Source: Centroscyllium fabricii
Taxonomy: Eukaryota
Length of the DNA stretch: 64,000 nucleotides
Direction: 5' to 3'
Assembly (NCBI GenBank): GCA_051313645.2
Contig: JBNRSN020000006.1
Coordinates: 46,562,001 to 46,626,000, forward strand
Position 1 is the first letter of the stretch, and each line of letters begins with the position of its first letter. The notes below the pieces were generated by a model that saw nothing but the letters and a program-made list of their open reading frames with translations, ran no database searches and was not told where the DNA came from. Shown here in pieces: positions 9,399-60,940 of this stretch. The position numbers were made by a program, and so were the translations under genes.

Positions 9399-9700
9399 TG
9401 ATGCACAATCAATCACTACCAGTCGATGGTCAGATGTAATCGAGGCTTTTATTAACATAGAACTGGACACAGGTCTGATGATCTTCCAAGCCAAAGTGAA
9501 AGCACTCAGGTGCGCAGGCACTCTTATACTCTGTGGGCGGGGCCTGGGGAGGAAGCCAAAGAGCGGGGTCCTCCCAGGTGAGTCCTCCCTGACAAGAAGG
9601 CAAGGAGTTGCAACCTTATAGTACAGTTACAGTACAGTTGCAGGGAGGGGACACAAGGGGGAGACAATATACAATATATACAAGATAGTGGTTTACCACA
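9399..9700 (-). mobile_element. Solo LTR related to the LTRs of the 29.2-41.4 kb Gypsy
   Basis: TGAT...GTGGTTTACCACA termini as in the 29223/41141 LTRs; 5-bp TSD CCTTC/GCTTC inside CR1. Confidence 0.8.
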
Positions 9701-28230: not shown

Positions 28231-31222
28231 TGCTGCTGTCCCGGATGATCCTACGGCAAGTGGTTTCGGCAGAGCTGAGTGAAGCCTAATAGTGCTTGAT
28301 ATGGTCCAGCCAGATCTGGTGATGGATGGCTGGACCAGATATGCTCAAGTCTACACTAATTGAACTTGTGAAGATGGGTCACATCGGGGGTCCAACTGGG
28401 ATGAGAGAGAGTAAAGGTTTTGCTGGGGACAAGGGCATCGAGGGAATGGTTGAGCAGATCGATGGGTGCAGAGGTAACATGGCAAATGGAATCGAATCAT
28501 AGAAACTTACAGCACAGAAGGAGGCCATTCGGCCTGTCACTCCCATGCTGGCTCTTTGAAAGTGCAGTCGTGCTTAGTCCCACATCCCCGCTTTTTGTCC
28601 GTATATAATGGAAGGCATAAGGTTAATCATTGGGATGCAGAAAGTGCCGTTGTAAGTGACTTGGGGAGAGTATTTTCCAGGGGCGGACGCAAAAGGCAAA
28701 AAATATCTCCACTGCCTCTACGTGAGATCAAATCGTTGTTCTTTTGAAGAACGGCCCTTGAGATCTGGGCCCCTACACTCCTCAGTCAAGGACAGTAATT
28801 GCTCCCACATCCTTGAAGGAATGGCCCCCTTCCACCATCAGGTCCTCACTCTGAGTGTCAGCGTTGGCTCAGTGGTAAAGTTCTCGCCTCTGGGTTAGAA
28901 GGTTCTCAAGCCCTGCTCCTGAAGCTTGAGCACATAATCTGGGCTGCCATTTTCATGCTGTACCGAGGGAGTGCTGCACTGCTGGAAGTGCTGTCTTTAG
29001 GATGAAATGTTAAAACAAGGCCACGTCTACCCTCTCAGTTGGATGTAACACCCAAAACAGATTAGCTGGTCATTTATTTAATTTCTGTTTGTGGGAGCTT
29101 GCTGTGCACAAATTGGCTGCCGTGTTTCCTACATTACAACCGTGACCACACTTCAAAAGTACTTCATTGGCTGTAAAGTGCTTTGGGATGCCCTGATGCT
29201 GTGAAAGGTGTTGTAATGTAACTGATACCGTATCAATGACCTCGGAGACGAGAAGTTACGAGGTGAACAAAAGGCTTTTATCAGCTAAAAGGTTGGGCAT
29301 GCACCAGCTAGTCGACTGCTCCCAGAATGAATGGGGGGAGGGAGACAGTCGCTTATATACCTGTTCTGGGAGGAGGAGTCACAGGCGGGGCTAGCATGGG
29401 CATGCCCAGGTAAGCAATACACAAAGAACTATATACATTATCACAGGCCGTTGGTTACACACACATATATATACAGAGTGGTTTACCACATTCACCCCTT
29501 GTTTAAAAACAAAGTCCGGTGGGGCGAATGCGAAGCAGTTCTTAGAGATCAAGCCTGTCGGGTGGCCTGGTCTGCCTCGTCGATCGGCGCACCGCTGGTG
29601 GTGGAGTCGGCGGGTGCACCGTTGGCAGTGGAGTCGGTAACAGCGAGGTCGGCGGGGGCGTTCGATCCGTCGTTTGGACCCTTGCGGTAACAATCAGGAG
29701 CGTGCTCTCCCATTCGTCATCCGGCTCGCGGGTGCGTAGACTAGGGGGCCATACTGTGCTGCCTGCAGGTGCTGGGTGGGCATATTGTGGCGCTGGAGCC
29801 TCGTAGTGAGCGGCGAACCGTGGTGCTGGTGCACTGAAGGTGGCGGTAGGCGGGGGGGGGGTGCGGGCTGATGGGTCGTACTGATCTCGAGGGCACCCGC
29901 GGGTGTCAGGTCCTTGATGGACACCGTATCCTCCCTCCCGTCAGGGTACGCCACGTAGGCGTACTGGGGGTTGGCGTGCAGGAAGTGGACCCGTTCGACC
30001 AGGGGGTCCGACTTATGGCCCCTCACGTGCTTCCGGAGCAGGACGGGTCCTGGGGACGATAGCCATGACGGCAGCGAGGTCCCGGAAGCCGACTTCCTAG
30101 GGAAGGCAAAAAGTCACTCGTGAGGGGTGGCGTTAGTGGCCGTACATAAAAGTGACCGAATGGAGTGGAGCGCTTCGGGGAGGACGTCCTGCCAGCGGGA
30201 GACTGGGAGGCCTTTAGACCGTAGGGCTAACAGGATGGCCTTCCAGATGGTGGTGCTCCCCCTCTCTACCTGTCCATTCCCCCGGGGGTTATAGATGGTA
30301 GTCCTGCTAGTAGCGATGCCCTTGGCTAGCAGAAACTGACGCAGCTCGTCACTCATAAAGGAGGCCCCCCGGTCGCTGTGGATGTAGTTGGGGTAGCCGA
30401 ACAGAGAGAAAATGCTGTGAAGTGCCCTGATGACTGGAGGAGGTCATGTCCGGGCAGGGGATGGCGAAGGGGAAACGCGAGTACTCGTCGATAACGTTTA
30501 AAAAGTACACGTTTCGGTTGGAAGAGGGGAGTGGCCCTTTAAAGTCAACGCTGAGTCGCTCAACGGGGCGGGTGGCCTTGATCAGGTGCACCCGGCTGGC
30601 CGAAAGAAGTGCGGCCTGCACTCCGCACAGACCTTGCAGTTTCTGGTCATGGTCTTGACCTCCTCGATGGAGTAGGGGAGGTTGCGGAACTTAATGAAAT
30701 GGACCAACCTGGTGACCCCCGGGTGGCAGAGGTCATTGTGCAGGGTTTGGAGACGGTCCACATGTGCGCTGGCACATGTACAGCGGGACAGGGCGTCTGG
30801 GGGCTCATTGAATTTCCCGGGCCGCTACAAGATATCGTAATTGAAAGCGGAGAGTTCGATTCTCCACCTCAATATCTTGTCGTTCTTGATTTTACCCCGT
30901 GTGGTAACCGTTGATATACAGTTATTTACCACCATAATATTGTGTCCAATATTATCTGTATGTGTAGCGCTCCGGTGCATGATGCAACTGTCCTGTGTTG
31001 CGACACTGTCGTGGGGCCAGGTCAGCCACACCTCTAACTCCTCCCTCAGGTGAGTGCCTTATAGGTGGGGACTGACCGGCCCCCATTAATTCTGTACCTG
31101 ATGTTCGATCGGAGCGTAGCTCCATTGTAAGCTAATAAAAGCCTTGAGTTAAGGTAACTACTCGTCTTTAGTTTTATTAGATTATTGACATTATGTCAAT
31201 TTTATTAGCTTAAAAATTTGAA

Positions 31223-32545
31223 ATGGAGAGCGGCGCTGTGAAACCCGAAAAGCTGGACATTAGTCCACAGGACCCAGCCGCCGCCAACACCTTCGAACAC
31301 CGGTTCGGCCTCCTGGAGGCCTACATGGACGCCGCCAAGGCTACAACCGAGGGGAACAAGTTACAAGTTCTCCGATCCAGAATCTCCAGCCGGGTATTCT
31401 CTTTCATCCGTGACGCCAAAACGTACCCCGATGCGGTGGCTAAACTGAAGAAATGCTACGAGCGCCCGGTCCACTCAGTCTACGCCAGACACGTGCTCGC
31501 GACCAGACCACAACTACCGAGTGAGTCAAATGAGCAGTTCGAGCAGGCGCTCCAAGCCCTGGTCCATGACTGTGGCTGCCAACCACGGACGGCAGAAGAA
31601 GAGGCGAACCTCCTCGTCCGGGACGTCTATGTAACGGGACTCAGGTCCGCAGAGGCCCGCCAGCGGCTGCTGGAAAAAGACTCTTTGACTTTGGAGGAGG
31701 CGATCTCTATCTCCAACTCCGTGGAGGGCGCACGCCGCAAACTGCAGGCATACGGCGGCCCAAACCCACAAGCTTACGATGCGTGGGCAGCCCCACAACG
31801 GGTCGAGACCCCTACGATGGCAGCGGCAGCTGCGAAACCGCCGGCGGAGAAAAGATGCTACTTCTGCGGCCAGGGACTACACCCACGGGTGAAATGCCCA
31901 GCAAAGACCGCGACCTGCGAGAGGTGCTCCAAGAAGGGACACTATGCCAAGGCCTGCAGATCAGCCCCGGCGTCCAGCTCCAGGTACAACAGCGCGGCCT
32001 GCGAAAGCTCTCAGGTAAGCTGCAACTGCAGCGCGACCCAGCGACGATCCGGGGGTAGAGTACAAGCACCCCCGTCTCCCACACTGAGGCGGCAGAGGCC
32101 GGCTGCACCCACGGCACGCCAAACTCAGCTACGGCCGGCCATGCGCGACCCCCCAACGCCAGCATCCCGCCCAGAGCGGCCCGCTGCGTGCGAATCACGG
32201 GCACCGCCAACCCAGCCACTGCGGCCCGCTGCATGCGAACCACGGGCACCGCCACCGCGTCTACAGCGGCCCGCCGCGTGCGAACCACGGGCGCCGGCAT
32301 CTTGTCCGCAGCGGCCCGCCATGTGCGACCCCCCGGCGCCGCCATGTGCGACCCCCCGGCGCCGCCATCTTGTCTTCAGCGACCAGCCATGTGCGACACT
32401 CCGGCGCCGCCATTTTGTCCCCAGAGGCCGGCCAGGTGCGAACCACGGGCGCCACCATCTTTTGTACGGCCCCGACCAGCGGAGGGCTCACACACACACA
32501 CACACACACTTCGGCCTCAGCCATCCCGAAAGTCGATCAGGCTAG
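31223..32545 (+). CDS. Gag of Gypsy B (frameshifted near its end)
   Basis: CYFCGQGLHPRVKC and CERCSKKGHYAKAC zinc knuckles. Confidence 0.85.
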   Translation: MESGAVKPEKLDISPQDPAAANTFEHRFGLLEAYMDAAKATTEGNKLQVLRSRISSRVFSFIRDAKTYPDAVAKLKKCYERPVHSVYARHVLATRPQLPSESNEQFEQALQALVHDCGCQPRTAEEEANLLVRDVYVTGLRSAEARQRLLEKDSLTLEEAISISNSVEGARRKLQAYGGPNPQAYDAWAAPQRVETPTMAAAAAKPPAEKRCYFCGQGLHPRVKCPAKTATCERCSKKGHYAKACRSAPASSSRYNSAACESSQVSCNCSATQRRSGGRVQAPPSPTLRRQRPAAPTARQTQLRPAMRDPPTPASRPERPAACESRAPPTQPLRPAACEPRAPPPRLQRPAACEPRAPASCPQRPAMCDPPAPPCATPRRRHLVFSDQPCATLRRRHFVPRGRPGANHGRHHLLYGPDQRRAHTHTHTHFGLSHPESRSG

Positions 32546-35175
32546 GCCTCACACCCTATCAAATTCCATGATGGGGATTAAAGTTAACGGCCATGTCACG
32601 AACTGCCTGTTCGACACCGGAAGCACAGAGAGCTTTATTCACCCCGATACAGCGCAGCGCTACGGACTGCAGATCCGGCCCACGCGCTACCAAGTCTCCC
32701 TTGCTTCACAGTCCCACACCGCGGACATCACCGGCTACTGCTCCGTCACGCTCACAGTTAAGGGCAGCGTGTACCGTCATTTTAAATTGTACATTCTGAA
32801 GCAGTTGTGCTCCCCAGTCTTACTCGGACTGCATTTCCAGTGCCACCTTAAGAGCCTGACAATGGAGTTCGGCGGGACCCTGCCCCCCCTCACCGTCAGT
32901 AGCTGGGACAATCCCTTCCCAAAGCGGAGCCCGGCCTGCGGCCTCTCCACCCTGAAAGTCGACCCCCCCTCACTGTTCGCCAACCTCGACCCCAACTGCG
33001 AACCCATTGCTACCAAGAGTCGGCGTTACAGTGCAGGGGATCGGACGTTTATCAGGTCGGAGGTCGGGCGTATGCTAAAGGAGGGGATAATTGAAGCCAG
33101 CACCAGCCCCTGGCAGGCCCAGGTTGTAGTGGTGAAGACTGGTGAGAAACACCGGATGGTTATCGATTATAGCCAGACCATTAACCACTACACCGGGCTC
33201 GACGCCTACCCCCTCCCCCGCATCTCGGAAATGGTTAACCAGATTGCCCAATACAAGGTGTTCTCCACAATCGACCTTAAGTCGGCGTATCACCAACTCC
33301 CGATCCGGAAAGCCGACCGCCCGTACACCGCCTTCGAGGCGAACGGTCGGCTCTACCATTTCCTCCGGGTCCCCTTCGGCGTGACCAACGGAGTGTCAGT
33401 GTTCCAACGGGAGATGGACCGCATGGTTGACCAAAACGGGTTGCAGGCCACCTTCCCCTACCTGGACAACGTGACTATCTGCAGCCATGACCAGCAGGAC
33501 CACGATGCCAACCTGGCCAAATTTCTCCACACAGCGAAACGGCTGGATCTCACGTACAACAAAGACAAGTGTGTCTTTAGTACAGATCGGCTCGCCATCC
33601 TCGGATACGTGGTGGAAAACGGGGTCCTCGGCCCCGACCCACAGCGTATGTGCCCCTTACAGGAACTGCCCCTTCCTCACAACCCCAAAGCCCTGAAGAG
33701 ATGTCTAGGATTTTTCTCTTATTGCGCGCAATGTGTTCCCCAATTCGCGGATAAGGCCTGACCGCTCCTCAAGGCTGCCGTCTTCCCCCTCTCGGCAGAA
33801 GCCCACACGGCGTTCGCCCGGATCAAGGAAGATATCATCAAGGCGACCATGCACGCCGTTGATGAGTCCATCCCTTTCCAGGTGGAGAGTGACGCTTCGG
33901 ACTTTGCCCATGCCGCCACCCTGAATCAGGCAGGCAGGCCCGTAGCGTTTTTCTCCCGCACCTTACAGGGACCCGAAATTTGCCACTCTGCAGTGGAAAA
34001 GGAGGCTCAGGCCATCGTGGAGGCCGTGCGCTACTGGCGTCATTACCTGGCCGGTAAGCGTTTTACCCTGCTCACCGACCAACGGTCGGTCGCGTTTATG
34101 TTTAACAATAAACAAAAGGGTAAAATCAAGAATGATAAGATCCTGCGGTGGCGGATCGAGCTCTCGACTTACGAGTGCGACATTCTTTACCAACCAGGCA
34201 AACTCAATGAATCCCCCGGACGCACTGTCCAGGGGAACGTGCGCCAGTGCCCAGCTAGACCGGCTGAAGGATCTCCACGATCGCCTCTGTCACCCGGGTG
34301 TCACCAGACTTGCCCACTTCGTAAAATCCCGTAGCCTCACTTACTCCATCACGGAGATCAAGTCTATGACCCGAGAGTGCCCTGTTTGCGCCGAGTGCAA
34401 ACCCCAATTTTTCAGGCCAGACACGGCGCATCTCATTAAGGCCACTCGCCCCTTTGAACGTCTAAGCGTGGACTTAAAAGGCCCCCTCCCCTCCACCGAC
34501 CGCAACTCGTACTTCCTCACGGTCGTAGACGAGTTCTCCCGCTTCCCCTTCGCCTTCACCTGCCCAGATATGACGAGCGCAATGGTGATCAAACACTTCA
34601 CCATGCTGTTCGCCATTTTTGGTCTCCCCAGCTACATCCATAGCGACCGGGGGGCGTCGTTCATGAGCGACGAACTGCACCAGTTTCTGCTCCAGAAAGG
34701 GGTTGCCTCGAGCAGAACGACCAGTTACAACCCCCGGGGGAACGGCCAGGTAGAAAGGGAGAATGGGATCATCTGGAAGGCGGTCACCCTGGCCCTGAAG
34801 TCCAGAGCCCTTCCAGTGTCCCATTGGCAGGCAGTCCTTCCTGATGCGCTGCACTCGATCCGCTCTCTGCTATGTACGGTCACCAACGCCACACCTCATG
34901 ACCTTATTTTTTCATTCCCCAGGAAGTCGACTTCGGGGACAGCCCTTCCACCGTGGCTCAAGACGCCGGGGCTGGTCTTGCTTAGGAAGCACGTCCGCGG
35001 CCATAAGACCGACCCCCTGGTGGACAAGGTGCAGCTGCTGCATGCCAACCCGCAGTACGCGTACGTACAGTTCCCGGACGGGCGCGAGGACACCGTCTCC
35101 ATCAAGGACCTAGCACCCGCCGGGAGCACCACAGCAGAGCCCCTGGTCGGGCAGCAGCCCGCCCAGCCACTATAG
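32510..35175 (+). pseudogene. Pol of Gypsy B (protease, RT, RNase H, integrase) with a stop at 33759 and a frameshift near 34215
   Basis: FDTGS; PFG; YLDN; ESDASD..EKEAQA..TDQ; HHCC; DDE core (SVD, HSDRG, NGQVER). Confidence 0.9.
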
Positions 35176-35814
35176 TTCGGCCACCTCCAGCCGCGACATA
35201 TCGACCACTGGCCGATACACGACCCACAACCCACCTGAGGCTGGCCGCCACTACCGCGTGGTCTAGAGCCCCAGCCATGGCCAGCCGAGGACCACGACTT
35301 GGATGGCTCGGGCTCACCGCCACCACCAGCACCCACAGTACCGACACCGGCGCCGCCTTCACCACCATCGGCCCCAACGTCGCCAGTGCTACAGGAACCG
35401 GAACAATTGACAGAGACCCGGCGGTCCACCAGACAGACGCGACCGCCGGACAAACTAATCATGAACTGCTCTGTCCATTCACCCCGCCGGACTTGATTTT
35501 TTAAGAAGGGGTGAATGTGGTAACCGTTGATATACAGTTATTTACCACCATAATATTGTGTCCAATATTATCTGTATGTGTAGCGCTCGGGTGCATGATG
35601 CAACTGTCCTGTGTTGCGACACTGTCGTGGGGCCAGGTCAGCCACACCTCTAACTCCTCCCTCAGGTGAGTGCCTTATAGGTTGGGACTGACCGGCCCCC
35701 ATTCATTCTGTACCTGATGTTCGATCGGAGCATAGCTCCATTGTAAGCTAATAAAAGCCTTGAGTTAAGGTAACTACTCGTCTTTAGTTTTATTAGATTA
35801 TTGACGATACGTCA

Positions 35815-38598
35815 TAGAATCATAGAATCATAGAAGATAGGAGCAGCAGTAGGCCATTCAGCCCTTTGAGCCTGCTCCACCATTCAATGAGATCATGGCT
35901 GATCTTTAGCAAGCTAGTAACCCGTCCCCGCCTTTTCTCCATAACCTTTAATCCCTTTAGCTTGAAGAAATATATCCAATTCCCTCTTGAATATGTTTAA
36001 TGAACTGGCCTCCACTGCCCTCTGTGGCAGGGAATTCCACAGGCCCACCACTCTCTGAGTGAAGAAATTCTTCCTCATGTCTGTCCTAAATGGTTTACCC
36101 CTTATCCTTAGACTGTGGCCCCTGGTTCTGGACTCCCCCGCCATTGGAAACATTCTCTCTGAATCTAACCTGTCCAGACCTTTCAGAATTTTTTACGTCT
36201 CAATGAGATCGCCTCTCAATCTTCTAAACTCCAATGAGTACAAGCCCAGACTACACAATCTCTCCTCGTAGGTCATTCCTGCCATTCCAGGAATCAGCCT
36301 GGTGAAACGCCACTGCACTCCTTCCATGGCAAGAACATCCTTCCTCAGGCGAGGCGACCAGAACTGTACACAATACTCGAGGTGTGGTCTCACCAGTGCC
36401 TTGTACAGCTGCAGTAAGGTATCCTTATTCCGATATTCGAACCCTCTTGATATGAAGGCCAACATACCATTTGCCTTCCCAACCGCCTGCTGCACCTGCG
36501 TGCTCGCCTTCAGCGACTGGTGCACAAGAACACCCAGGTCTCTCTGCACCTCCCCATCTCCCAATCTATTGCCATTTAAGTAGTAATCTGACCTCCTGTT
36601 TTTGCCCCCAAAGTGGATAACCTCACATTTATCCACATTATAGTGCATCTGCCATCTATCTGCCCAGTCCCCCAACTTATCCAAATCGCCCTGTAACTTC
36701 CTGACACCCTCTTCAGAGCCTGCCCCCCCTCCTAGTTTGGTGTCGTCCGCGAATTTGGAGATATTACATTCAATTCCCTGATCCAGATCATTAATATATA
36801 TTGTAAACAGCTGAGGTCCCAGGACAGACCCCTGCGGTACTCCACTAGTCACCGGCTGCCACTCAGAAAACGAGCCGTTAATTCCAACTCTCTGTTTTCT
36901 GTCTGCCAACCAGTTCTCTATCCACATCAAAACTTTGCCCCCAATCCCATGAGCCTTAATTTTACATGCTAATCTTTTATGTGGAACCTTATCGAAAGCT
37001 TTCTGGAAGTCAGGTACACCACATCTACTGGCTCTCCCCCATCTATTTTCCAAGTTACTTCCTCAAAGAATTCCAATAGATTAGTTAAACATGATTTACC
37101 TTTTGTAAACCCATGTTGACTCTGTCCGATCCCATCCCTACTTGTCAAATGCTCCGAGATTACATCCTTGATGATGGACTCGAGCATTTTGCCCACTACT
37201 GATGTAAGGCTTACTGGTCTATAATTCCCTGCTTTCTCTCTGCCCCCCTTTTTAAACAGTGGGGTAACATTAGCCACCCTCCAATCCGTGGGTACTGATC
37301 CAGAGTCTATTGAGTTCTGGAAAATGATCCTTAATGCACCCTCTATTTCCGGGGCTACCTCTTTAAGTACCCTAGGATGTAGATTATCAGGCCCTGGGGA
37401 TTTGTCGGCCTTCAATCCCTTCAACTTCCCCAAAACCATCTCCCTAGAAATACTGATATCTGTCAGCTCCTCCCTTGCCTTGGACCCTATGTTCGCTGCA
37501 ATTCCTGGGAGGTTGCTTGTGTCCTCCTTTGTGAAGACAGTACCAAAATATGAATTTAGTTGGTCTGCCATTTCTTTATTCCCCATTATATATTCCCCTG
37601 AATCGGACTGCAAGGGACCGACTTGGGATTTTACCAATCTTTTCCTATTGATGTACCTATAAAAGCTTTTGCAGTCAGTTTTTATGTTTGCCGCAAGCTT
37701 ACATTCATAATCTATCTTCCCCCTCCTGATTAATCCCTTTGTCTTCCTTTGCTGTATCCTGAACTGCTCCCAATCTTCCGGCCTGGTACTTTTTTTGGCC
37801 AATTGATATGCCCATTTTTTGGATTTAATGTTGTCCCTTATTTCCCTTGTTATCCACGGTTGAGTCACCTTTCTAGGTTTATTCTTATGCCAAACCGGTA
37901 TGAACGAGTTCTGTATTTCTTCCATCCTATACTTGAATGCTTGCCATTGTCTATCCACATTCAATCCCCCCGGGAACACTGCCCAATCTATCTTGCTTAA
38001 TTCCCTTCTCATACCTTCATAATTCCCTTTATTTAAATTCAGGACCTTAGTCTCTGAGTTGATCTTTTCACTTTCCATCTCAACTGAGAATTCGATCATA
38101 TTATGATCGCTCTGACCCAAGGGGCCTCGTACAACGAGATTGTTAATTAGTCCTTTCTCATTGCACAATACCCAGTCTAAGATGGCCTGATCCCGAGTTG
38201 GTTCCTCAACATATTGGTCCAGATACCCATCCCGTAGACATTCTAGGAATTCCTCCTCCTCAGTATTTTTACTAACTTGGCTAGTCCAATCAATATGTAG
38301 ATTAAAGTCGCCCATGACGACAGCTGTGCCCTTATTGCAAGCTTCTCTAATTTCCCTTTTTATGCCGTCCCCCACCTCCATATTACTATTTGGAGGCCTG
38401 TATATAACTCCCACTAATGTTTTCCGCCCTTTACTATTTCTTAGTTCTACCCATATAGATTCCGTATCATCTGAGTTAATATCCTTCCTTTCAATTGCAT
38501 TTATCCCCTCTTTCATCAGCAATGCCACCCCACCTCCCTTTCTTTTGTGCCGATCCTTTCTGAATGTTGTATACCCCGGGATGTTGAGTTCCCAGCCT
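35815..38598 (-). mobile_element. CR1 LINE, near-complete ORF2, 5'-truncated in the endonuclease
   Basis: ORFs 36969-38612, 36193-37053 and 35914-36153 carry APE and RT motifs; (CTATGATT)n tail abuts the Gypsy B 3' LTR. Confidence 0.95.
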
Positions 38599-41500
38599 TT
38601 GTTGTTGAACATACAAGCGACTGAGCGTTGGTCAGTCAGCAGGTTAAATCGTTTTCCGGCCAGGTAGTGCTTCCAGTGTCACACTGCTTCAACAATGGCC
38701 TGGGCTTCCTTCTCCACAGAAGAGTGACGGGTCTCGGGGCCCTGGAGAGTGCGTGAGAAGAAGGCCACGGGTCTGCCCGCCTGGTTAAGGGTGACGGCCA
38801 GGGCAAAGTCCGATGCATCACTCTCTACTTGGAACAGGACGGCCTCGTCCACAGCATGCATCGTGGCCTTTGCGATGTCTCTCTTTATGCCGCAGAACGC
38901 CGTGCGGGCCTCTGCCGACAGGTGAAAGGAGGTTGATTTAAGTAGTGGGCGGGCTTTGTCCGCGTAGTTGGGGACCCACTGGGCGTAATAAGAAAAGAAC
39001 CCCAAGCACCTTTTCAGGGCCTTGAGGGAGTGGGGGAGGGGGAGCTCCAGGAGGGGGCGCATGCGGTCCGGGTCGGGACCGATGACCCCATTCTCCACAA
39101 CACTGCCGAGGATGGCAAGGCGGGTTGTCCTGAACACACATTTTTCCGTGTTATAGGTCAGGTTTAATGTTTTGGCGGTGTGGAAACATTTCTGGAGGTT
39201 GGCGTCATGGTCCTGCTGGTCGTGGCCGCAGATGGTCACATTATCAAGATACGGAAAGGTGGCCCGCAGTCCGTACTGATCAACCATTCGGTCCATCTCT
39301 CTTTGGAAGACTGAGACCCCGTTGGTGACGCCAAACGGAACCCTGAGGAAGTGATAGAGGTGACCGTCAGCCTCGAAGGCAGTTTAGTGACGGTCCTCCG
39401 AGCGGATGGGGAGCTGGTGGTACGCAGACTTCAGATCGATGGTCGAGAAGACCCGAAACTGAGCGATCTGGTTCACCATATCCGCTGTGCGGGGGAGGGG
39501 ATACGCATCTAGCTGCGTAAACCGGTTGATGGTTTGACTGTAGTCCACAACCATCCGGTGTTTGGCTCCGGTCTTCACAACCACTACCTGTGCCCTCCAG
39601 GGGCTATTACTGGCCTCGATGACCCCCTCCTTCAGGAGCCGCTTCACCTCAGACTTGATGAAGTCTCTGTCCCCGGTACTGTAGCGCCTACTTTTGGTGG
39701 CGACGGGCTTGCAGTCCGGGGTGAGTTTGGCAAAGAGCGAGGGGGGGCGACCTTAAGGGTCGAGAGGCCGCAGGTAGCGCGCTGTGGGTACTGCGGGGAG
39801 CGCTGGTTGCTGACCGTGAGCGGGGGAAGGGTCCCACCGTACGCCATCGTAACGCTCTGGAGGTGGCACTGAAAGTCAAGGCCCAGGAGTAAGGGAGCGC
39901 AGAGCTGCGGCAGCACGAATACTTTAAAATTATTGAAGTGTACGCCCTGCACTGCCAGGGTCACTACGCAGCGACCGCAGACGTCCGCAGAGTCGGACTT
40001 AGATGCCATCGAGCTTTTTTGGCTAGTCGGCATGACTGGATGGATGAAGCTCGCCGTGCTCCCGCTGTCAAAAAGGCAATCCGTGCTCCGCCTGTTCACC
40101 TGCACCGTCATCATAGATCTGCTCAGTGGCTGGCTCTTGTTCTGGTCGACTGTGATGGAGGCCAGTATCCGGTCGGTCGAGTCGGTTGAGAGGTCTGGGG
40201 CCTGTTCCCAAGATGGCTGCCGCCACGCGGCGGGCTGTGATGGAGATGGCTGTGTCCAGGATGGCGTCTGCTCCCACGCGGCGGGCTGTGATGAAGATGG
40301 CTATGTCCAAGATGGCTGCCCCCACGGCCCACATGCGGTGCTGCCCGGTTTGGAGGGCGGTATTGCCGCTGCTCTGCAGACTTTAGCGAAATGTCCTTTC
40401 TTACCGCACTTAGAGCAGGCCGCGTCTCTCGCCGGGCAGTTTCGCCTGGGATGTTGGGCTTGGCCGCAGAAATAACATTTAGGCCCTCTCGAGTGCATAG
40501 CCGCAGTCATCTCTTCCGCCGGTCGCGGCGCGGCCGGCTGTGCCCAAGATGGCGGCGTCGGCGCTGTGACCGCGTGGTTGCCCGAGTAAGAGGACATGTT
40601 AAGGGACGCCAAGTCCAGTGCGTTCCCCAGGTCAGCTGTCGCCTGCAGGTCCATGCCATTTTGTTCCAAAAGTCTCTGGTGGATGTAATCGGACCTGAGG
40701 CCAGTCACATAAGCGTCCCTGATGAGACTTTCCGAGTGCACCTGGGCTGTCTGTGACTTACAGTTGCAGACCCGGTAGAGGACTCTCAGCGCTCGTAAGA
40801 ACTCCACGCTCGATTCCCCGGGTTGCTGCTTTCTGGTGGCCAGGAGGTGTCTGGCATGGACGAGGTTCGGTGTCCGGTTGTACTCGGCTTTCAGAATTCA
40901 GATCACATCTAAGTAGGACGACGCATCCGCGATTATCGAGTAAACTTGGGGGCCCACCCGGGCGTTGGGAAGGCGCCGCTTGTCCTCCTCCATCTGGACG
41001 ACCGCTGCGTTGGCTGCGAGGAACGCCTTGAAACAGCTGAACCAGTGCGTAAAAGTATTGGAGGCGCCATTGTTTGGGGATCCAGTTCAAACGTCGCTGG
41101 TTTGAGCATGGTCTCCATGGTTAAATTTAGCTAATAAAATTGATACCGTATCAATGACCTCGGAGACGAGAAGTTACGAGGTGAACAAAAGGCTTTTATT
41201 AGCTAAAAGGTTGGGCATGCACCAGCTAGTCGACCGCTCCCAGAATGAATGCAGGGAGGGAGACAGTCGCTTATATACCTGTCCTGGGAGGAGGAGTCAC
41301 AGGCGGGGCTAGCATGGGCATGCCCAGGTAAGCAATATACAAGGAACTATATACATTATCACAGGCCGTTGGTTACACACATATATATATACAGAGTGGT
41401 TTACCACAGTTACTACTACAGAGACTCATCCGAGGTGTCTAGGGCCTAGAATCTGCCTTTACTTGAGCGGACCCGCCCCCGTTCCCCCATCGGTCAGTTG

Positions 41501-58890: not shown

Positions 58891-59798
58891 CAAAAGCAAA
58901 ATACTGCAGATTCTGGAAATCGGAAATAAAAACAGAAAATGCTGGGAACACTTAGCAGATCAGGTAACACCTGTGGAGAGAGAAACAAGGTTAACGTTTC
59001 AGGTCAAAGATCTTACGTCAGAACTGGAAAAAGTTAGAGATGTAACATGTTTTAAGCAAGTGCAGAGGCTGAGAAAGGGGGGAGTGGAGGAAAGAACAAA
59101 AGGAAAGGTCTGTGATAGGGTGGAAGGCAGGAGTGATTAAATGATAAAAGATATGATTGTACAAAGCAAAAGGAGATGGTTATGGGCGACGTATCGTCAA
59201 TCAAACACGAAAGACGAGTAGTTACCCAAACTACAGGCTTTTATTCACTTACAATGGAGCTAGTCTCCTGTTGAGTTCAAGGCGAGAATGAGCGGGGGCA
59301 GGGCGGCCCTCACCTATATGCTCCCACCTGAGGGGAGGAGTTAAAGGTGTGGCTGACCTGGCCTTGCACACGATGTACAGAGTTGAAGGTGAACACATCC
59401 GTATATATACACACAATGTACAGAGTTGAAGGTGAACACATCCGTATATATACACACAATGTACAGAGTTGAAGGTGAACACATCCGTATATATACACTG
59501 GTAATTACGGTTACCACAATGGGACAAGTAAAGAAACAACAGCTGGGTCCAGAAGCGGTGTAAATGGCTATAGCAGAATCATCAGCAGCTGCCATCTGAA
59601 AAAATGAGGGCAGAGGTTATGGTCTGAAATTGTTGAACTCGATGTTGAGGTCAGAAGCCTGTAAAATGCCTGATGGAAAGATGAGGTGTTGTTCCTCGAG
59701 CTTACGTTGAGCTTCATTGGAACAATGTAAGAGGCCAAGGAGAGAGAGGTCAGAGAGCGAATAGAATGGAGAATTAAAGTGACAGGCAACCGGAAGCA
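58891..59798 (-). mobile_element. Penelope-like 3' part with degenerate hammerhead, split by a solo LTR
   Basis: LPVACHFNS..SDLS..EAQRKLEEQHLIF; inverse of 26758-27690. Confidence 0.8.
59187..59518 (-). mobile_element. Solo LTR related to Gypsy B, with a 43-bp x3 tandem repeat (59375-59498)
   Basis: Minus-strand termini TGTGGTAACCG...TTGACGATACGTC; TSD ATGGG. Confidence 0.85.
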
Positions 59799-59800
59799 CT

Positions 59801-60940
59801 GGGCTGAATCTTAACTCAAAAAGTTGGGTGGGTGTGATTGTGTCAGATGTTAAAATGCAAAAAATCTGGAACAGGACCCAAACCCGCCTTGAACCGGCCC
59901 ACTTCCAGTTTTAATGGAGGCAGGAAAAGTGGTGGGCGACCAATCTGCTCATGGGAAGTGGGTTGGTCTTTTTAAATATTATAATGAGGCTGCCTGCCTT
60001 CATTTTAACACTCATTCTATTTTTAACCACAGGCAGCCGAATTTCCCAGACCTCAAGAAACCGGGCAGCTTAAAGGAGGCAAGAGGGGCTGAATCTAAGG
60101 TAAATGCCTCACAAGACTGCTTGTGGGCCAGGAGGAGCAGGAGTGTTTCCTCTAGGCACAACAAGCTACCCAGTAACCCCCTCTCCCCGCGATCTATCTG
60201 CTCCCCTCGCCCAACCACCACCATCCCCCCAGACCACCATCACACCCTCCCACAACTGAGACCACCAGACCACCATCGCACCCCCTCACAACTGAGACCG
60301 CCAGACCACCATAGCACCCCTCACACTGAAACCGCCAGACCACCATCGCACCCCCTCACAACTGAGACCGCCAGACCACCATAGCACCCCCTCACACTGA
60401 GACCGCCAGACCACCATCGCACCCCCTCACAACTGAGACCGCTAGACCACCATAGCACCCCCTCACACTGAGACCGCCAGACCACCATCGCACCCCCTCA
60501 CAACTGAGACCACCAGACCACCATCACACCCTCCCACAACTGAGACCACCAGACCACCATCACACCCTCCCACAACTGAGACCACCAGACCACCATCGCA
60601 CCCCCTCACAACTGAGACCACTAGACCACCATCACACCCTCCCACAACTGAGACCACCAGACCACCATCACACCCCCTCACAACTGAGACCGCCAGACCA
60701 CCATAGCACCCCCTCACACTGAGACCGCCAAGCCAACATCGCACCCCCTCAGAACTGAGACCGCCAGACCACCATCACACCCCCTCACAACTGAGACCAC
60801 CAGACCATCATCTCTCCCCCTCACAACTTATACCAACAGACCACCATCACACCCCCTCACAACTGAGACCCCCAGACCACCATCGCACCCCCCACAACTG
60901 AGACCGCCAGACCACCATTGGACCCCCCCAAATTGGGACA
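59801..60940. mobile_element. Harbinger-like element (family of 10135-10973), truncated after the minisatellite
   Basis: Shared blocks AATGAGGCTGCCTGC and GGCAGCT.AAGG.AGGC. Confidence 0.5.
60229..60919. repeat. ~36-bp C-rich minisatellite, about 19 units
   Basis: Unit CCAGACCACCATC(A/G)CACCCCCTCACAACTGAGACC(A/G). Confidence 0.95.

Follow-up and report, generated by a model that had tools for sequence, protein, structure and literature searches.

According to published accounts, the primer for reverse transcription of the fission-yeast element Tf1 consists of the first 11 bases of its own RNA, cut by RNase H (PMC7175516), and the title of a study cited in PMC6317226 states that this primer is not removed. 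Tf1 and Tf2 of S. pombe, Tj1 of S. japonicus, Tf1/sushi and the Tcn1 chromoviruses are described as carrying a primer-binding site (PBS) that complements their own LTR and not a tRNA (PMC7175516, PMC4600332, PMC6317226), and self-priming has been predicted for Tj1 (PMC4600332) as well as for Tcn1 and copia TAR (PMC6317226). TAR is a Ty1/copia lineage of plants (Houba, Osr-1) and thus belongs to another superfamily, and there, too, the prediction is drawn from LTR–PBS complementarity (PMC6317226). Experiments have demonstrated self-priming in fission-yeast Tf1, and the predictions concern chiefly chromoviruses related to it and a single copia lineage of plants. Of other Ty3/gypsy elements, the Cigr-1 clade is reported from tunicates, molluscs and annelids, and the main text of either paper on it makes no mention of a PBS (PMC6238403, PMC8556966). 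The dictyostelid Skipper is described as lacking a TGG-type PBS, as do the elements studied here, but it has a polypyrimidine stretch, no LTR complement and a chromodomain (PMC5006619).

The elements that we describe resemble Tf1/sushi in being Ty3/gypsy elements with a PBS complementary to their own LTR and without a tRNA site. They differ in other respects: the Tf1/sushi chromoviruses carry a chromodomain, whereas a search at the integrase C-terminus found none in 22 full-length relatives at E<=0.05, and the RT motif is mostly YxDN; in Tf1, the transcript's first ~11 nt serve as the primer, whereas here the start predicted from the DNA lies ~39 nt upstream of the pairing arm; and in this genome, unlike in Tf1, the arm carries a poly(A) signal. 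From comparisons of genomic copies, we consider it quite probable that these elements prime reverse transcription with their own RNA instead of a tRNA, in a Tf1-like manner but with a capped primer of 51–53 nt cut at AAUAAAA/GCC. A very large animal clade without a chromodomain thus appears to be self-priming in another geometry, in which the arm lies inside the transcript, the primer measures about 52 nt and the cut falls at the poly(A) signal's edge. Our literature search gave no account of self-priming in this clade or of the mirror copies described below; older element descriptions may mention the complement.

The window, a stretch of 64,000 nt, contains two such elements, Gypsy A and Gypsy B, and two solo LTRs (Table 1). 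On the minus strand, the 5' LTR of Gypsy A is followed by a single A (41140) and then by TTTTATTAGCTAAA, the exact complement over 14 nt of TTTAGCTAATAAAA within the LTR; Gypsy B pairs over 13 nt, and the exchange of A and T on both sides of the duplex relative to Gypsy A, pointed out in a first-pass annotation, is indeed present. The same annotation called the LTRs otherwise dissimilar, which is roughly right for A and B (178 matches in 316 alignment columns); B and the solo LTR at 59187, however, are related (227/343). It also predicted the PBSs of the full-length parents of the two solo LTRs, and both predictions were borne out. Among 30 loci examined out of 41 matches to solo LTR 1, four 5' LTRs were followed by gag, three of which read the predicted ATTTTATTAACATAG and the fourth matches it over 11 nt before a deletion. 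For solo LTR 2, 30 loci out of 40 matches gave ten 5' LTRs, and seven of them read the predicted ATTTTATTCACTTA; the other three have a substitution in common and the same upstream flank, so they probably represent a single duplicated insertion.

Table 1. Parts of Gypsy A, Gypsy B and the solo LTRs, in positions of the window
Feature	Position	Strand	Remarks
Gypsy A 5' LTR	41141..41408	-	268 nt, TG...CA; from sequence; 260/268 identities with the A 3' LTR
Gypsy A TATA box	41271..41277	-	read from sequence; 31 nt above the Initiator A
Gypsy A Initiator-like TCATTC	41243..41248	-	predicted transcription start at the A, 41246; from sequence and mirror ends in relatives
Gypsy A self-primer, cap to AAUAAAA	41194..41246	-	53 nt; predicted from mirror ends and U5-side breakpoints of relatives
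Gypsy A pairing arm	41194..41207	-	AATAAA signal inside; predicted cut between 41194 and 41193
Gypsy A self-complementary PBS	41126..41139	-	begins 2 nt past the LTR
Gypsy A gag start codon	41116..41118	-	A gag-pol interrupted and broken
Gypsy A polypurine tract (PPT)	29491..29500	-	
Gypsy A 3' LTR	29223..29490	-	AATAAA of the arm with one substitution
Gypsy B 5' LTR	30900..31198	+	nested in the integrase region of A
Gypsy B pairing arm	31128..31140	+	
Gypsy B PBS	31200..31212	+	
Gypsy B gag-pol, in pieces	31223..35175	+	protease, RT with YLDN, integrase; chromodomain search without a match
Gypsy B RT motif region	about 33450–33465	+	YLDN
Gypsy B 3' LTR	35516..35814	+	Initiator A 35705; arm end 35756; 292/299 identities with the B 5' LTR
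Solo LTR 1	9399..9700	-	arm 9447–9460
Solo LTR 2	59187..59518	-	Initiator A (predicted start) 59289; arm 59239–59251; 5-bp target duplication

The elements have direct LTRs with TG...CA ends, a PPT and 5-bp target duplications, and the protein domains come in the Ty3/gypsy order of protease, RT, RNase H and integrase, with the Ty3 RT as the best solved relative; the 5-bp flanks of Gypsy A itself match with one mismatch. By these sequence features, the elements belong to a large Gypsy (Ty3/gypsy) clade without a chromodomain. The integrase tails are of low complexity, and among the 116 readable relatives (proteins P0001–P0120), the RT motif is YxDN rather than YxDD in 97 and ends in DD in 19. 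Neither protein searches nor the Atlas yielded a clade name, and a search of supplements of PMC6238403 for the motifs gave no match. Related proteins were found in sharks and rays, cnidarians, a mussel, a damselfly and a nematode. Within the window, tandem repeats of 45 bp lie between gag and protease of Gypsy B (32136–32451), and a LINE-like insertion (35815–39400), with long minus-strand ORFs and a short repeated tail, abuts the B 3' LTR inside Gypsy A.

The pairing extends far beyond the window. A tight pattern of PBS plus gag had 21,233 matches in the 7.2-Gb genome; the pattern fixes a TTTTATT core, and the B family and the metagenome loci were found by protein instead. All 22 B-family junctions reach 12 or 13 pairs out of 13. 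Scanning metagenomes with an alignment of 22 proteins yielded 80 loci, 43 of them with a gag start, of which 40 were scored and 38 had usable junctions; combined with own-genome copies, and with nine further loci left out, these make up a set of 104 junctions, of which 97 pair at 12 or 13 of 13 positions. The complement begins 2 nt past the LTR end and is 13–19 bp long across the elements. When the junctions are grouped into 28 sequence clusters, an element's PBS pairs with its own arm at 12 or more of 13 positions in 23 of them, whereas pairing across elements reaches this in 16 of 756 combinations, and none of 100,000 permutations attains the observed sum. Among 26 family representatives (the clusters minus L105 and L317, in which pairing is low), positions +4 to +14 show two to four distinct Watson–Crick pair types, and when 34 copies are placed in a tree of their gag sequences, joint switches of arm and PBS occur on several branches. 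Judged by this covariation, the LTR–PBS pairing is functional. The comparison of own and cross pairing supports the first-pass proposal of selected pairing over AT-rich chance, but selection need not be the only source of the covariation: should the plus strand copy the primer, replication would rebuild the PBS out of the LTR arm, and the joint changes would then not be compensatory mutations only. The scarcity of G.U wobbles, one in 338 cells among the cluster representatives, fits a PBS rebuilt by copying. Rare variants at one arm position of A-type families were uncompensated in all of the 100 matches listed out of 357, and most of them may postdate the insertion, while families natively bearing that variant have the compensating base in the PBS; in metagenome families with variants present in both LTRs, L309 is compensated and L300 is not.

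In the predicted 5' ends of both A and B, the duplex is part of the centroid fold as well as of the minimum-energy fold. The z scores of whole-region folding are -0.55 for A and -2.64 for B, so that the duplex would have been missed by folding energy alone; for A, the energy is uninformative.

What the duplex is for could in principle be answered without priming. Within the arm, AATAAA is found in all seven own-genome representatives, and as it lies downstream of the predicted start, it needs to be silenced in the 5' LTR; a poly(A) hairpin is present in HIV-1. The duplex might then do nothing else than hide the 5' poly(A) signal, with a host RNA as the primer, whether a tRNA, a fragment of one or some other. 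We regard this as very improbable. The leaders are short, and TGG, characteristic of the PBSs complementary to tRNA 3' ends in tRNA-primed animal Gypsy clades such as Mag and CsRn1, is absent within 8 nt of the LTR in all 104 junctions; nor is there one fixed PBS, each family's site following its own LTR instead, so that both outcomes named beforehand as fatal to the pairing are missing. Moreover, the arm holds AATAAA in only 11 of the 26 families, ATTAAA in six and neither in nine, two of the last with AATAAA in the loop, which is too patchy for poly(A) masking alone, and masking leaves unexplained both the fixed +2 register and the mirror copies. Under self-priming, concealment of the signal would be a side benefit in elements with AATAAA-bearing arms.

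We propose the following course of events. Transcription would begin at the Initiator, about 31 nt below the TATA box, and the arm, about 39 nt downstream of the start, would fold onto the PBS; this depth of the arm inside the predicted transcript is what gives a primer of 51–53 nt. The RNA would next be cut at the 3' edge of the arm, AAUAAAA/GCC, probably by the element's own RNase H as in Tf1; GCC or ACC directly follows the arm in 21 of the 26 families, giving the pattern A/RCC. The capped piece would prime the minus strand and remain attached, and the plus strand would copy into it. Normally, only about 14 nt of the primer copy would be used in the second strand transfer, but occasionally the whole copy would be retained and then mis-jump, leaving an inverted copy of the RNA 5' end at the LTR. 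A hairpin 5' of the arm was considered as a stop signal and rejected, the median z being 0.0 in 23 families, with no hairpin conserved at that place.

Such inverted copies do exist. The first was L005, a relative of a solo LTR in which the LTR is followed by an inverted self-copy beginning at the arm, and we use the term mirror where an LTR end continues into its own R region in inverted orientation. Mirrors account for about 4% of the junctions of A type (271, counted with an unrestricted gap, compared with 6,869 normal ones), and they keep the register, with the same start in 98 of the 100 matches listed. Searches by family gave 207 mirror junctions of A type, 68 of B and solo-2 and three of solo-1, and we measured 141 of them (70 of the A type and all of the others). 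A retained primer would agree with the non-removal that the title cited above reports for Tf1. The mirror copies of R, mapping a putative capped primer of 51–53 nt, are likely to be new.

The mirror ends were measured against the Initiator A, about 30 nt below the TATA box; the start sites of B, solo-1, solo-2 and a fifth family were fixed before the mirrors were measured, whereas that of A was read from the sequence and unregistered. Of the 141 ends, 33 (30 distinct junctions) lie within 2 nt of the predicted start and 49 extend to the beginning of the LTR; another 31 are shorter, and 28 are of intermediate length. Family A has 49 mirrors that are not full length, and 23 of these end at -1 to +1 (p about 1e-16 against a null of uniform ends over ±22 nt, which presumes uniform breakpoints without microhomology hot spots). 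The end is at the predicted start in seven of 26 mirrors of B and in one of one of solo-1; the fifth family has 15 mirrors, three within 2 nt of the predicted length of 51, one at 59 and 11 long, and thus three of its four short mirrors agree with the prediction. The solo-2 family shows no peak at the start site, with none of its 16 mirrors at -1 to +1 relative to the reference and one exact relative to its own LTR. Of the seven in B, four (L154, L194, L198 and L200) enter gag through one and the same junction, which has a microhomology of 6 nt, but have different flanks; they reflect either a hot spot or a sub-lineage that has spread with a 52-bp perfect hairpin. Nine A-type mirrors end at -1, and in seven of them (L136, L138, L148, L232, L248, L253 and L257) an A comes next, possibly through untemplated addition near the cap, microhomology being a residual explanation.

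Past the mirror, the sense sequence of the element often resumes via microhomology; in other cases, the sequence goes back to the end of U5, where it terminates at the CA that precedes a target duplication. Both are what one expects of a mis-transferred plus strand. A structurally similar outcome might arise if the mirrors were chromosomal inversions between two short inverted repeats, taking place after insertion and carrying no information on priming. About five loci, in which the break falls at +11 to +18 with the arm included on both sides, would suit such inversions, as would L234 with its inverted leader, but inversions would not be expected to end at the start site, or at the 3' edge of the arm with the arm itself missing, and target duplications of 5 bp, matching perfectly or with a single mismatch, flank all seven palindromic copies that could be assessed, indicating that they were inserted as units. 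We consider inversion very improbable, and the least plausible of the explanations. At L152/L153 (G000:C1:59826278-59826363), two mirror copies follow each other, as if the plus strand had returned to U5 and read into the primer a second time.

Many mirror loci retain just part of the LTR on the U5 side, and the breakpoints bear on the predicted cut. [quoted passage not shown] In the fifth family, none of six U5-side breakpoints falls within 3 nt of the arm end. At four loci (L148, L223, L229 and L375), the LTR-side break is at the start site, and their templates look uncut from the sequence. The latter would be natural if the self-primer came in trans or from elsewhere, that is, from a dimer partner RNA, the 3' R copy or short LTR transcripts trimmed to the duplex, and if the start-site mirrors resulted in part from synthesis switching template to a 5' end still intact. 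Since the first 14 nt of a mirror are the PBS, such a switch is indistinguishable from a covalent primer, and nine of the 49 full mirrors run into an inverted PPT and hence copy the 3' LTR. On the other hand, the 12 breakpoints at the arm end point to frequent cutting of the templates there, L152/L153 passes twice in succession through the U5–mirror junction, and a start-site mirror that jumps to the 3' R yields full mirrors as well. Altogether, we find a primer from such sources unlikely and favour a primer that would be cut from the very RNA it primes. That scheme has difficulties of its own: the full mirrors, the largest class, count against it by requiring an extra step, and it does not account for a 38-nt unpaired overhang of the plus strand.

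A bolder variant, which we consider speculative and rather unlikely, is that the primer is a separate small capped RNA, from the cap to AAUAAAA, acting in trans. Any LTR of the family, solo LTRs included, would then supply primers, and one duplex would decide between premature polyadenylation and replication of the genome. The faulty genomic copies yield predictions of the start site and the cut at the level of single nucleotides, and reading primer ends from mirror insertions should extend to any high-copy element without a tRNA site.

Together with the two bases that come after it, the LTR end makes up a palindrome or hairpin (ATTGA...TCAAT; 41139–41155 of the window, minus strand) with covarying inner pairs, and a terminal stem of at least 5 bp, possibly comparable to the U5-IR-like stem beside the PBS of Tf1/sushi chromoviruses, is present in 54 of 66 own-genome junctions and in none of 19 metagenome families. 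A 36-bp minisatellite occupies 60190–60930 of the window. Upstream of the arm, R contains short palindromes built around TCGA or CGATCG in several families (in the window, 41226–41236 on the minus and 31104–31110 on the plus strand), and they may represent a putative dimerisation site.
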